Shown here: positions 12,969 to 24,692 of the stretch, in pieces
Numbering within the stretch: the first letter of the stretch is position 1
Layout: the number at the start of each line of letters is the position of its first letter
IMG/VR virus record: IMGVR_UViG_2563366822_000012
Span: 1-27,206 of that record
From: a virus
Taxonomy: Duplodnaviria; Heunggongvirae; Uroviricota; Caudoviricetes
Reading direction: 5' to 3' (one strand)
Length of the DNA: 27,206 bases
Program-made: the position numbers and the translations under genes
Notes under the pieces: model-generated
Told to the model about the DNA's origin: nothing
Seen by the model: only the letters and a program-made list of their open reading frames with translations
Database searches by the model: none

Positions 12969-14464
12969 TATGCAGACTCCTCTGAATACTGAAGACGGAA
13001 CTGGTTAACCACGGCAAAGACACGCAACTGGTTAACATAGTCAGGCGGGAACAGCGTGTTCAGGCGGTTCGGATCGCTGGCATCACGCTCCACAACCAGG
13101 TACTGCTTAAACAGTTCGTAGTTTTCCACGATCCCCGCACGCTCAAGCTGACGGTAGGTTGCCAGCAGTTCCCCTTTGATCACCGCCGGGGTGACAATCG
13201 CCTGACCGGGACCAAAGCGGGTACCGTCACTGGCAAGCTTGTGACGCCCGTACTTACTGGTAATGACGGATTTCAGTTTGCGCAGTACATACGCGCTGGT
13301 ATGCAGCGTCTCACTGTCGAGGTAGCTGTTATCCGCAACCCCGTAAGCGTTTTTCCTGTACGTGGTGACATCACGCTGAATGCGCAGCACCCCGCTTTCG
13401 ACATACGCCGTTGCCACGCCATGAGACAGCAGGGTCTGTTGTTCGGTCATCGTGAACCGTTTCCCCTTCGGCGCAGGCAGCATACCCACCAGCTCACCGG
13501 TCTGCGTGGGACGTGCCGGATCGTTGCGAATAAACACCGCTGCGCGGGCGGTACGGCTTGCCGCCAGCTCGTCGGCAGGCGTCTGGGTCTCTTTTTCGTA
13601 CCCCGCCAGGGTAATGTGCTGCTGGTTAAACTGGTCACCTGCGGTCACCAGTTCTGACAGCGTGCCGATCTTTGCCGTATACACATGACCATACAGCTGA
13701 CGCGCATAGCTCCAGCGACCGCTGGTATCGTTCATCTCGGTCACCAGCGTGTTAACGGAGGCCGTGTCGTTGAACGGCAGACCGATATAATCAAACGGCT
13801 CATCCGCCATTGCAGCCACCGCGCCGGTGAGAACAGGAGCCCCCGTTCCGGCGGTCCCCGCCGCCACGGCAATCTGTACGCCCGCAGGCAGCACTTCGCC
13901 CCCACCGAAGCCGTAGTAATTGAGGCTGACAGGAATTTCATTCCCGCAAAGCCCCTTATGACGCGCGGTCAGTGTGACCACGCCAGCCGAAGATGAGGCC
14001 GTAAACGGCAGGGCCGGAACGGCATTGATGGCATCCTGGATACTGCCGGCAATCGTCGCGACGTTATCGCCATTGGTCACCGGTGCCTGCACGCGGGTAC
14101 GTCCCACATAAACATTCACCGTGCCGGTTTCGGTTGCCGCCCCGGTCACCGTCAGCGTAACCGTTGCCGCCGCGCCTGTGGCTTCCGGAACGGCAATCAC
14201 ATACAGCTCGCCAAACGGGTCAGTCTGGCGATAAGCCTCGACCATACGCGCCAGCTGACTTCCCGCACCACAAATCTGGCGTGCATAGTCTGCCGACGGC
14301 ATCAGTACCAGACTGTTGGCAACAATCTCTGCACCGTTATTGGCATGACCAATCAGCAGCGATGCTCCGCTGTCCTGTGCAGTATTCGCCGCCTGGTTAT
14401 CCATTTCCGCATAAAACAACGGAACCAGCGTATTCGACGGAATGGTGTTAAAGCTTGTCGTCAT
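12968..14464 (-). CDS. Tail sheath protein (Mu gpL-like)
   Basis: 498-aa ORF, first large gene of the tail module, followed by tube, chaperone and tape measure genes. Confidence 0.88.
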   Translation of the reverse strand: MTTSFNTIPSNTLVPLFYAEMDNQAANTAQDSGASLLIGHANNGAEIVANSLVLMPSADYARQICGAGSQLARMVEAYRQTDPFGELYVIAVPEATGAAATVTLTVTGAATETGTVNVYVGRTRVQAPVTNGDNVATIAGSIQDAINAVPALPFTASSSAGVVTLTARHKGLCGNEIPVSLNYYGFGGGEVLPAGVQIAVAAGTAGTGAPVLTGAVAAMADEPFDYIGLPFNDTASVNTLVTEMNDTSGRWSYARQLYGHVYTAKIGTLSELVTAGDQFNQQHITLAGYEKETQTPADELAASRTARAAVFIRNDPARPTQTGELVGMLPAPKGKRFTMTEQQTLLSHGVATAYVESGVLRIQRDVTTYRKNAYGVADNSYLDSETLHTSAYVLRKLKSVITSKYGRHKLASDGTRFGPGQAIVTPAVIKGELLATYRQLERAGIVENYELFKQYLVVERDASDPNRLNTLFPPDYVNQLRVFAVVNQFRLQYSEESA

Positions 14465-22288: not shown

Positions 22289-22639
22289 TCACTTTAGCCG
22301 TTCACGGGCCGTCTTCGCCTTATGGCACGGCCAGCACAGGCTCTGCAGATTACTGTCTGCATCGGTGCCGCCATGCGCTTTAGGGATGATGTGGTCAACG
22401 GTTTTAGCTTCACGCACCACACCGGCACGCAGACATAACTGACACAGGCCGTTGTCACGTTTCAGCACACGCGCACGGATAACGTCCCACTTCGAACCGT
22501 AGCCGCGCTGATGACGGGATTGTCCTGGCTTGTATTGCTTCCAGCCTTCGCTTTTGTGGCTTTCGCAGTAGCCTGACGGGTCTGTCGTGGTATTACGGCA
22601 ACCTCGAGCACGGCAGGCTTTTGGGATTCGTGGCGGCAT
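22289..22639 (-). CDS. HNH endonuclease (terminase-associated, HK97 gp74-like)
   Basis: 116-aa ORF with Cys-x2-Cys pairs and …DHIIPKAHGGTDADSNLQSLCWPCH…; located immediately upstream of the small terminase gene. Confidence 0.85.
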   Translation of the reverse strand: MPPRIPKACRARGCRNTTTDPSGYCESHKSEGWKQYKPGQSRHQRGYGSKWDVIRARVLKRDNGLCQLCLRAGVVREAKTVDHIIPKAHGGTDADSNLQSLCWPCHKAKTARERLK

Positions 22640-23051
22640 ATGTACTAATCTCCGATTTATCCAAATTTCACTGCCATAATGCCGACATTCTCTGCCATTG
22701 TTGGCTCCGTTTATCCGTTAAAAGGGATATCAGTTAAGTTATCCCGTGCAGGGTATAAGCCATTGTCGAGACCACTCATTGAATGGTCTCTGCAATAACC
22801 GATGTCTTTCCATCAGTCCGCCCCACAAAGAATCTTTTTTGCCATAAGGCAGGAGGTTCATCTTTCAGTGGCTGCCAGTGTTATTTCCCCACTTACTGGC
22901 TTGGGTTGTTTCGTGGTACTGCCGTTAACTGGTGGCGCACAGATTTAGTTAAATCCGTTCTCGCATGATCCAGCTTTTACATACCTGGATTGTGAGGGAT
23001 GTAAATCACGGTTTCATTATCAAGCCCACCAGTAGATGGGCTTTGGAATGG

Positions 23052-23570
23052 TCACTTTGGCAGTCCGGGGATCGATATTTGCGCCTGCTGCTCAAGCCTT
23101 TCGATTCTTGCTATGAGTTGCGGTTTTTTGATCCTGCCCCAGCGGTTCAGCAAGCGTCCTGACATACTGGCAACATCCTTTTCCTTCATGAACTCCAGCA
23201 TTAACTCGTTGTGCTCTCTTTGGTATGAGTGAGCCAACTCCATCAGCCTGTCACGCATCCAATTAAATGCTTTGATAAACGCCTCTTTGATGGCGGCAGC
23301 TTTTTTGCCGGTAAACGACATGATGATGTACATCGCGCCGTCTTTGGAAATTTCATATTCAACATACTGATTACCCTTGTGTTCATAGGTAACCCGCGAA
23401 AAGTTGCTGGTTAGAAATTCATCCGAACAGTCTAGCTTTTCGATTTTCTGAATGATGTGGTGATGCTGCTTGTCGAAGTAAGCTGCTACCTTGCGGGAGG
23501 TTGTGATCACGCGATCACCAGAAACAACCACCATGTCCCGGAAATCGAGATTAGCCAATTGATGATTCAT
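23052..23570 (-). CDS. Rha-family phage regulatory protein
   Basis: ORF track gives 23052..23783; the internal ATG at 23570 (MNHQLANLDFRDMVVVSGDRVITTSRKVAAYFDKQHHHIIQKIEKL…) matches the usual Rha N-terminus. The upstream 71 codons overlap a structured intergenic region and are probably not translated. Confidence 0.75.
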   Translation of the reverse strand: MNHQLANLDFRDMVVVSGDRVITTSRKVAAYFDKQHHHIIQKIEKLDCSDEFLTSNFSRVTYEHKGNQYVEYEISKDGAMYIIMSFTGKKAAAIKEAFIKAFNWMRDRLMELAHSYQREHNELMLEFMKEKDVASMSGRLLNRWGRIKKPQLIARIERLEQQAQISIPGLPK

Positions 23571-23710
23571 AGCGTCTTTACCTTTTAGAAAGTGAGCCTG
23601 TCTCACAGAAAAGCCGCCCGAGAGAGGTCGCCACCTATAACGGCTTTTCTCAGGCTCGCTTACTGAAAGGCTCTCGTTAATATGCGCGTGAGATGCGCTG
23701 TGAAATTCAG

Positions 23711-23737
23711 ATATAAAAAAGCCCCGCACCGCGAGGC
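23711..23737 (-). terminator. Putative intrinsic terminator downstream of the lysis cassette
   Basis: Minus-strand GCCTCGCGGTGCGGGGC (imperfect hairpin) followed by TTTTTTAT, about 35 nt after the Rz stop. Confidence 0.4.
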
Positions 23738-23770
23738 TCATTAAATTGACTTTGTGATTTGCAAAAAAAT

Positions 23771-24232
23771 TTATTTCAGGCATTGCGTCCTGATGTATTC
23801 CTGCAGGTAGTTAACCTGCGCGGTTATCCTGTCGATTCCGCTTCGTAGACGGTAATAATTGAGTTCAGCATCTGCTGTAAGTCTTGGGCTTTCTCCATCG
23901 CCCATGCTGCTGGCTCCGGTCGTTGACTTTGCACAGGTGGCGGCGACTTGCAGGCGCTTACGCCCAGCAGAAACATCAGCACGGAGACTTTCGATAGTCG
24001 CGTTAGCATCAGCAAGCTCCTTTGTATATCTGGCATCGAGTTCTGCTACGTCACGTTGACGCTTCTGCATATCAGAGATCGTCGCCATAGCCGAATCTAA
24101 TGCCATAGCGTTTTCGTCGCGCTGTTTTTTGTATTCAATGGCTTTATTGTGGTAATGATTAGCTGACCAGACGAGAGAACCGAATAAAGTCAGGAGAAAA
24201 GCAGAAATAACCAGCTTATAGCGAAGTTTCAT
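23771..24232 (-). CDS. Rz: Rz i-spanin (inner-membrane spanin subunit)
   Basis: ORF track starts at TTG 24265; ATG 24232 gives [27 protein letters not shown]…, an N-terminal membrane anchor followed by a coiled-coil region, laid out like lambda Rz; follows R. Confidence 0.85.
   Translation of the reverse strand: MKLRYKLVISAFLLTLFGSLVWSANHYHNKAIEYKKQRDENAMALDSAMATISDMQKRQRDVAELDARYTKELADANATIESLRADVSAGRKRLQVAATCAKSTTGASSMGDGESPRLTADAELNYYRLRSGIDRITAQVNYLQEYIRTQCLK
23824..24009 (-). CDS. Rz1: Rz1 o-spanin lipoprotein, embedded in the +1 frame of Rz
   Basis: ATG 24009 gives MLTRLSKVSVLMFLLGVSAC-KSPPPVQSQRPEPAAW…: signal peptide with lipobox-like LGVSAC, then a proline-rich mature region. Entirely nested within Rz, as in lambda. 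Confidence 0.65.
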   Translation of the reverse strand: MLTRLSKVSVLMFLLGVSACKSPPPVQSQRPEPAAWAMEKAQDLQQMLNSIITVYEAESTG

Positions 24233-24692
24233 TAACCACCCCGCCAGCTTCTTTGAATTTGGCAATCAGACTATCGATCTTGTGTTCATACTGACCGTAG
24301 CCAGCACCGGGCAATGAAGCCCAAATATTGCTGCAACGATCAATAGCCTGACGAATATCACCGCGATCAATCATCGGCAAAGCGCCACGTTCCTTAATCT
24401 GCTGCAGCGCAACAGCGTCCTGGCTTTTGGGAGAGAAGTCTTTCAGGCCAAGCTGCTTACGATAGGCATCCCACCAACGGGAAAGAAGCTGATAGCGACC
24501 GGCTGCTGTTGATTTGAGTTTGGGGTTTAGCGTGACAAGTTTGCGAGGGTGATCGGAGTAATCAGTGAATAGTTCTCCTCCTACAATGACGTCATAACCA
24601 TGATTTCTGGTTTTCTGCCGTCCGTTATCAGTTCCCTCTGACCATGCCAGCATATCGAGGAACGCCTTACGTTGATTATTGATTTCCACCAT
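24216..24692 (-). CDS. R: Endolysin, lambda R-type lytic transglycosylase
   Basis: 158-aa ORF; [39 protein letters not shown]… is near-identical to my memory of lambda R over most of its length. Confidence 0.93.

Follow-up and report, generated by a model that had tools for sequence, protein, structure and literature searches.

The lysis-rha spacer and its terminator

In the window (the whole stretch of 27,206 nucleotides that was analysed), the genes around the spacer form the late operon of a lambdoid phage, and all of them lie on the minus strand. Their order on this strand is the Q antiterminator gene (26291-25671), the holin and lysozyme genes, Rz with Rz1, a 200-nt spacer, rha, an HNH endonuclease gene (22289-22639) and the genes of TerS and TerL. 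The limits of the intergenic spacer (23571-23770) were found to be exact, the Rz stop codon being located at 23773-23771 and the rha start codon (ATG) at 23570-23568; in its short form, rha (23052-23570) encodes a protein of 172 amino acid residues with the Phage_pRha and ORF11CD3 domains. The HNH gene lies directly upstream of TerS and TerL, an arrangement known from HK97-type cos packaging, whereas the nearest full matches to the spacer were the P22-like phages Gally and CurroJimenez; the prophage is therefore mosaic in make-up. Some P22-like phages carry an extra ORF of about 45-50 amino acid residues between Rz and the terminator (Gally, L003 1627-1770; epsilon34 gp67, L006 977-1129), which accounts for a 142-bp insertion relative to the window in the megablast comparison with phages.

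In the original prediction, four motifs were described in the spacer (a terminator-like hairpin with a U-tract after Rz, an 8-bp inverted repeat, a GTGAG/CTCAC hairpin and a GCGC palindrome), and they were read as a transcriptional boundary with operator sites and separate regulation of rha. Motif coordinates are given for the minus strand, the coding strand here. The terminator-like hairpin was recovered as GAGCCTCGC-GGT-GCGGGGCTT at 23739-23719, 32 nt past the Rz stop codon. Its stem has nine pairs (six G-C) and a loop of 3 nt, and TTTTTT follows to 23715, so that a G+C-rich hairpin leads directly into a U run, as in Rho-independent terminators. The homologous hairpin and T run are annotated as a terminator at the same place in phi80, HK106, ES18 and epsilon34; this annotation spans the first 25 nt only and leaves the remaining 150 nt of the spacer unexplained. 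We conclude that the terminator is real. It would terminate unmodified RNA polymerase and would be read through by Q-modified polymerase, since Q lies upstream and late genes lie downstream on the same strand; HNH, TerS and TerL, being among the latter, need read-through from a Q-dependent late promoter. A second, weak terminator-like hairpin of five pairs (23776-23793, minus strand) covers the end and stop codon of Rz, and it is probably due to chance.

The terminator lies 0-20 nt 5' of the GCGC palindrome (P0, see below) in about 80 of 87 homologous contexts, and in 23 contexts only 0-6 nt separate the end of its T run from P0, too few for a promoter. When sigma-70 -35/-10 hexamers with 16-18 nt spacing were searched for on both strands of 22600-24400, no site was found, while 2.4 were expected. 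The proposed boundary therefore held for its terminator, and its operator sites and separate rha promoter found no support. With no promoter-like site and a terminator abutting P0, the leader RNA must originate from late transcripts that read through the terminator. Separate control of rha is accordingly most likely post-transcriptional, exerted through an RNA leader, and not transcriptional as had been proposed.

Rha is toxic to the phage in IHF-deficient hosts, and IHF reportedly regulates rha (PMC4936722, with reference to Henthorn and Friedman 1995). With the IHF consensus WATCAANNNNTTR and up to one mismatch, no match was found between 23372 and 24136, the spacer included; the nearest matches lie inside rha, at 23265-23277 and 23360-23372.

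Architecture and covariation of the leader element

Three of the four motifs are parts of one larger object, which consists of P0 and a 90-nt four-tier hairpin (P1-P4). The 8-bp inverted repeat (AAAAGCCG...CGGCTTTT) was found to be a perfect 10-bp repeat, AGAAAAGCCG at 23650-23641 with CGGCTTTTCT at 23616-23607, and the palindrome is present as GCGC at 23698-23695 and 23687-23684. GTGAG (23606-23602) and CTCAC (23596-23592) are also present. The repeat and the GTGAG motifs are nested in a 20-nt, 85%-complementary inverted repeat (23670-23651 with 23600-23581) that had been missed earlier, and jointly they make up one 90-nt hairpin ending in the rha Shine-Dalgarno (SD) sequence. The folding check gave -49.8 kcal/mol for the 144-nt element (z = -3.5; 1 of 200 shuffles as good), in agreement with the structured spacer that was predicted. 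The GTGAG/CTCAC hairpin was rejected as a functional unit, its conservation being limited to the window subtype: this pairing competes with a stronger conserved helix, and other subtypes have GTGCGAA...CTCAT instead.

The whole conserved leader (23569-23703, minus strand) runs from P0 through the linker, a, P1-P4, the SD and the spacer behind it to the start codon. It scored 138.3 bits (E 1.7e-33) with covariance model R1, the window sequence being among those used to build the model. On the sense strand, the order of the family is the terminator, P0 (GCGC stem with a loop of 6-7 nt), a linker of 8-13 nt, a (6 nt), P1 (13 positions), P2 (7 bp), P3 (10 bp) and a 4-nt internal loop, followed by P4 (4 bp with a GGCG loop), a', P3', a bulge of 6-7 nt, P2', P1' with AAGG (the SD), 7-10 nt and the AUG.

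In the window, P0 is GCGC-ATCTCAC-GCGC (23684-23698), and 98.7% of its cells in the alignment are paired. Its stem is almost invariant, with C-G replaced by U-A in two sequences and U.G wobbles in three, and on this pattern of changes P0 alone may be a DNA palindrome. The 5' flank a (CGAGAG, 23671-23676), which pairs with a', directly precedes the P1 5' arm (CCTTTCAGTAAGC, 23658-23670), whose CCTT pairs with the SD and in which double-sided changes were counted. The P2 5' arm (GAGCCTG, 23651-23657) covaries in distant members only (P22, HK022 and the second copy of L132). The P3 5' arm (AGAAAAGCCG, 23641-23650) is complementary at 10 of 10 positions to its 3' arm, and 9 of the 10 pairs show double-sided changes. 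The apical hairpin P4 (AGGT-GGCG-ACCT, 23625-23636) is closed by A-U in 30 sequences and by U-A in 21; the variants AGTC/GACT and GCT/AGC retain the GGCG loop, and P4 is missing from some second copies. On the 3' side, a' (CTCTCG, 23619-23624) forms one side of the internal loop between P4 and P3 and could pair with a as a pseudoknot or an alternative pairing. It is followed by the P3 3' arm (CGGCTTTTCT, 23607-23616), the conserved bulge GTGAGA between P3 and P2 (23601-23606; 6-7 nt in the family, GTGCGAA or GTGCGG in other subtypes), the P2 3' arm CAGGCTC (23594-23600), complementary to its 5' arm, and the P1 3' arm (ACTTTCTAAAAGG, 23581-23593), the last four bases of which (AAGG, 23584-23581) are the rha SD. 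P1 and P2 together comprise 20 pairs in the window, interrupted by three mismatches, while the P22 and Stx subtypes have 18-21 pairs without a break; an RNase III site would take about 20 bp of nearly continuous double-stranded RNA. A fourU-like RNA thermometer would have a weak U-rich stretch that pairs with the SD and melts near 37-42 C; in the window, CCUUU pairs with AAAGG beside a C.A mismatch, but this pairing closes a hairpin of about -40 kcal/mol.

Covariation was scored in two alignments. In A3 (plain MAFFT, 38 sequences), 16 pairs showed double-sided changes, compared with 8.4±1.6 in shuffles (0 of 500 as many), and 84% of cells were paired, compared with 36-53% when the partners were slid. 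In A5, which contains 58 distinct copies realigned by the covariance model, double-sided changes were seen in 29 of 38 pairs (9.2±1.8 in shuffles; 0 of 500) and 87.5% of cells were paired (32-48% when slid), counts that are inflated by the fit to the model structure. RNAalifold alone recovered P0, P2 and P3, with 19 pairs of which 12 were compensated, in agreement with both alignments. Compensation is seen in P3 (AGAAAAGCCG/CGGCTTTTCT vs AGGAACGCCG/CGGCGTTCCT in Klebsiella GZ7), in P4 (AGGT/ACCT, TGGT/ACCA, AGTC/GACT and GCT/AGC, with the GGCG loop kept in all) and in P1 (CCTTT.../...AAAGG vs CCTA.../...TAGG and CACATAG/CTATGTG). The structure of the leader, P0 with P1-P4, is thus well supported. 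The strand of the RNA could not be decided for the window subtype from G.U vs A.C counts or from sense and antisense fold energies: in 42 of 58 copies, the antisense fold has a slight advantage in stability (mean difference 0.3 kcal/mol), and the window itself gave z = -4.6 for the plus strand and z = -2.6 for the minus strand. The orientation rests on the genomic context, on three G.U pairs in the 18-bp P1/P2 stem of P22, which are valid on the sense strand only, and on the P22F RNA described below.

Complementarity between a, the six bases 5' of P1, and a', on the 3' side of the apical internal loop, was found in every subtype and in nine versions. These are CGAGAG/CTCTCG (window, 23676-23671 with 23624-23619), CCCGAG/CTCGGG, CCCAGAG/CTCTGGG, CCTAGAG/CTCTGGG, AGAGAG/CTCTCT, GAAAG/CTTTC (phi80 second copy), CACCGA/TCGGTG (P22, ES18), CGTCGA/TCGACG (RothD) and CAAGAG/CTCTTG (HK022), and the pairing persists in copies that lack P4. 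Since the subtypes differ in register by one base, counting in fixed columns fails, and it was replaced by duplex folding of each sequence against shuffled flanks; the mean duplex energy was -9.7 kcal/mol, compared with -5.4 for shuffled flanks (median per-type p 0.04). In the window, a abuts P1 without a linker, so the a/a' helix is incompatible with a straight, fully paired hairpin of about 30 bp. For the pairing to form, the RNA would have to bend sharply at the conserved bulge and open the outer P1, or else adopt an alternative state.

Distribution, downstream genes and P22F

The block of about 135 nt recurs in other phages and ends at the start codon in all annotated homologues. Although their flanks differ, phi80, HK106, HK620 and Gally match positions 23698-23566 with about 99% identity. 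In the alignment with phi80, HK106 and Gally, the stretch from GCGCATCTCACGCGC to ATGAA is essentially invariant and identity collapses right past the start codon; the Gally sequence also diverges upstream of the terminator. Megablast against phages placed mosaic joints at the edges of the spacer parts (23738, 23698, 23665 and 23566-23561), and the joint just past ATGAA may mark a recombination point. Conservation is unusually high in the spacer between SD and AUG (TAAAGACGCT, 23571-23580) and in the first codons (ATGAA), even among copies that precede unrelated genes.

By blastn, the block was found in 152 phage records (Escherichia, Salmonella, Klebsiella, Enterobacter, Pantoea, Hafnia and others), many at only 82-87% identity; carriers include phi80, HK106, HK620, epsilon34, Stx phages, and Klebsiella and Pantoea phages. 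Megablast detected it in 641 of 5426 complete E. coli genomes (about 12%), and a pattern scan of IMG/VR gave 115 true copies, 52 of them unique. In a scan of genome contigs with GAGCCTGAG-N38-60-CAGGCTCA, the matches listed looked like chance and came from unrelated phyla, and they have no bearing on host range. More diverged members were found in HK022 and in an Stx2a phage (61 and 55 bits). Several phages carry two copies, the second diverged and again ending at a start codon. In phi80, the first copy precedes rha, and the second (45236-45353; 70 bits) lies directly before PHI80_66; the covariance model also found second copies in loci L014, L034, L059, L104 and L132. L104, a single viral contig, has its two copies (339-464 and 13002-13136) on one strand with 12.5 kb between them, and the second precedes a gene that starts MHYPTV; the slot is therefore not confined to the part of the genome behind the lysis genes. 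In Klebsiella phage RothD (L138 657-1496), the element follows Q and two tRNA genes and precedes an HNH_3+AP2 homing-endonuclease gene upstream of the holin, from which it follows that the leader travels with inserted accessory genes, not with the lysis cassette.

Rfam 15, at the gathering threshold, contains no family that matches in the spacer, and the sole match in the window was a tRNA; at E up to 10, nothing relevant appeared, the best hits being chance matches to miRNA models (23 bits vs a cut-off of 86). The tRNA gene (RF00005, 63 bits) lies at 1009-1080 on the plus strand, near the left end of the window and on the strand opposite to the late operon. Literature searches for a named element matching the leader found nothing.

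The genes behind the leader differ: a different Rha in phi80, a GIY-YIG-like gene in HK106 and epsilon34, the KilA-N gene hkbK in HK620, and genes of hypothetical proteins elsewhere. Among 70 distinct full-length downstream proteins, 41 belong to the Rha family, 13 to KilA-N, three to T5orf172/MUG113 (GIY-YIG-like) and three to ANT; HNH_3+AP2 and an N15 gp59-like protein are among those seen once, and several proteins have no Pfam match. The ORF-track extension of Rha into the spacer, which the original prediction took to be probably spurious, is indeed so. Of 85 unique copies, 61 have an in-frame stop in the 150 nt preceding the ATG, and the Phage_pRha domain begins at residue 23 of the short Rha; hence, the 243-residue ORF from 23783 is an accident of an open frame. 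Together with the unrelated proteins behind the same block and the RNA-type covariation, this shows that the long Rha ORF is spurious and that the short form of 172 residues is real.

Partition-function folding predicted that the SD is rarely free: P(unpaired) was 0.01 in the window and 0.14 on average over 95 copies, while 20 other ORF starts of the window averaged 0.36. The main stem of the P22 subtype stops just short of the SD, which is only weakly paired there (0.26). When 8 nt of the P1 5' arm, equivalent to the nucleotides absent from the P22F 5' end, were removed from the window RNA, the SD and AUG were unpaired in the predicted fold.

P22F is an RNA of 89 nt from the plus (sense) strand, detected in infected Salmonella and validated by RT-PCR, the 3' end of which lies 6 nt before the rha AUG (Naaz et al., Noncoding RNA 2026;12:21, PMC13397905). 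Its authors found it by small-RNA sequencing (June 2026), described it as an sRNA with "no known function", proposed an analogy to IsrK, reported it as abundant in the cytosol and in vesicles (926 and 2054 in their table), and tabulated as conserved no copies other than identical ones in close P22 relatives; covariation, a pseudoknot, SD occlusion or a link to other downstream genes is not reported there (PMC13397905). The P22 locus matched the covariance model over its full length (62 bits, E 2e-15), although P22 is not in the seed alignment. It shares with the window the site between gene 15/Rz and rha, the strand, P0, P1-P4, the GGCG loop, the 6-nt 3' bulge and a/a'; its subtype has diverged in sequence and was missed by blastn with the window block. 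P22F starts 6 nt into the P1 5' arm, and its two ends are not a 2-nt-staggered RNase III pair. The spacer leader is thus best placed in a widespread, covariation-supported and uncurated RNA family, with P22F as its P22 member. The RNA evidence is that for P22F, from one small-RNA-seq study in P22, and the window copy is known as sequence.

A probable cis-acting leader and the alternatives

The spacer is best explained as a terminator plus a cis-acting leader in the Q-antiterminated late transcript, which would mask the ribosome-binding site (RBS) and be processed to a stable fragment; we give this reading a probability of about 0.6. The spacer RNA module, encoded on the strand of Rz and rha, would be part of this late transcript, and the terminator would stop polymerase that has not been modified by Q. 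The leader of about 135 nt would then form P0 and the four-tier hairpin of about 30 base pairs, the outermost pairs of which (CCUU with AAGG) would sequester the SD of the next gene, while the 6-nt stretch just 5' of the hairpin would pair with the apical internal loop as a pseudoknot or an alternative pairing. As long as the late transcript is intact, the accessory gene behind the leader (Rha here; KilA-N, GIY-YIG-like, ANT or HNH elsewhere) would be translated at a low level, and an endonucleolytic cut in the P1 5' arm would free the RBS and leave a stable hairpin RNA of about 90 nt, which in P22 would be P22F. Most likely, the leader limits and times translation of the accessory gene by RBS masking and is processed to a stable hairpin RNA, and a further role, as the joint at which gene cassettes recombine, is probable. 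Within this mechanism, repression of translation and processing are inferred from folding predictions and from the P22 small-RNA-seq study; the enzyme and the role of a/a' are proposals as well. P22F, however, has its 3' end between the SD and the AUG, so that processing could inactivate the rha message instead of activating it.

Leader hairpins that mask the translation-initiation region and are processed by RNase III occur in the lambda N leader and in T7 early mRNAs. The window leader resembles these in being a long imperfect hairpin in a polycistronic phage transcript, just 5' of a gene, with the RBS in its 3' arm, and cleavage of its stem is likewise predicted to unmask the RBS; unlike them, its family has the additional P0 hairpin and the a/a' pairing. 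In T4-like phages, free-standing homing-endonuclease genes (I-TevI, seg, mobE) lie behind RBS-sequestering hairpins that are relieved by a late promoter inside the hairpin. There too, accessory or selfish genes sit in an essential operon behind an SD-covering hairpin, and some genes downstream of the present family are GIY-YIG-like or HNH; in contrast to T4, no promoter is seen at the window leader, and one conserved family precedes unrelated genes. IsrK of the Gifsy-1 prophage (RF01394) is similarly a prophage RNA just upstream of an ORF, in an operon with an antirepressor-like protein. It differs in having a promoter of its own and in acting on a longer isoform; at E up to 10, RF01394 gave no match in sequence or structure.

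Several other readings were weighed against the cis-acting leader. A riboregulatory switch is conceivable, though we doubt it: it would alternate between the covarying a/a' helix and the outer P1 that sequesters the SD. The choice would be made by a host factor or condition, with RNase III and the IHF-dependent state, which has long been known to control the toxicity of Rha, as candidates. Translation of potentially toxic accessory genes from the late transcript would be gated in this way, with the same leader acting as the joint for cassette exchange among enterobacterial phages. That the element is an independent trans-acting sRNA gene, as proposed for P22F and its companions by analogy to IsrK, with its site before rha incidental or serving an IsrK-like activation of the downstream mRNA, appears unlikely. 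P22F does accumulate as a discrete, abundant and RT-PCR-validated species of 89 nt, but it has neither its own promoter nor a terminator at its 3' end and must therefore be a processing product of the late transcript; moreover, the SD is part of the element, which in every case stops at a start codon, and IsrK gave no match in Rfam. Trans-acting and cis-acting roles are not mutually exclusive. We consider it quite improbable that the block is a recombination linker only, a shared boundary for swapping accessory-gene cassettes whose identity reflects recent exchange and whose fold is incidental. Mosaic joints at the block edges, unrelated genes behind it and paired copies able to flank a cassette (phi80, L014, L034) would suit such a linker; neutral linker DNA, in contrast, would not keep compensated helices in copies of 60-85% identity, nor a/a' in nine versions. 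A linker role probably coexists with an RNA function.

The transcriptional boundary of the original prediction, in which the terminator ends the late/lysis transcript and a palindrome-binding protein controls an rha promoter, has become still less probable. The terminator is real and conserved, and P0 (TGCGC-N6-7-GCGCA in many copies) is a near-invariant palindrome whose few changes are symmetric (e.g., GCGT...ACGC), as would suit a dimeric DNA-binding protein. Against this stand the empty -35/-10 search, the T run that leaves no promoter room before P0, the read-through needed by HNH, TerS and TerL, the compensatory changes and G.U pairs of P1-P4, which are properties of RNA, and the sense-strand P22F RNA that starts inside the hairpin. 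Translation of the 243-residue ORF as an N-terminal extension of Rha can be given hardly any weight: the frame is open in the window, and the P22 and phi80 records annotate starts inside the element, but most copies carry in-frame stops, the same block precedes KilA-N, GIY-YIG-like, ANT and HNH genes, in the short form the Pfam Rha domain runs from residue 23, and conservation is pairwise, not codon-wise. Equally remote is a hairpin acting in DNA, for example as a cruciform or as a signal in single-stranded DNA for replication or packaging. Both strands of the inverted repeats can fold, and in most copies the antisense one does so with a marginally lower energy; however, the three G.U pairs of the P22 stem would be G.T mismatches in one DNA strand and C.A in the other, the orientation relative to the operon and start codon is fixed, and an RNA of the sense strand has been detected.

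An RNA with covariation support and the capacity for a pseudoknot thus lies in well-studied phages (P22, phi80, HK022, HK620, ES18, Stx phages), yet has no Rfam entry. P22F gains a family and a positional context, and a testable cis function is suggested for it. The leader further offers a handle on the old question of how expression of rha, phage-toxic in IHF-deficient hosts, is restrained, and it marks a common slot for Rha, KilA-N, ANT and nuclease gene cassettes in late operons.

Annotation routinely overwrites the leader, with Rha ORFs extended into the RNA and spurious opposite-strand ORFs placed on top of it. Annotated GTG starts lie inside the element in P22 (ORF201, L136 926) and phi80 (rha, L001 1793), and the conserved ATG behind the element is the likelier rha start than those deposited. 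Features annotated by PGAP as "Rha family transcriptional regulator" also lie under the block in E. coli RefSeq matches. On the opposite strand, hypothetical CDSs cover the element in three records, namely PHI80_65 (L134 330-629; 45229-45528 of the phi80 record, minus strand), JEP4_59 (L010 1145-1312) and QDH45224 of SE16 (L011 1154-1279), and these are probably spurious gene calls caused by the RNA element.
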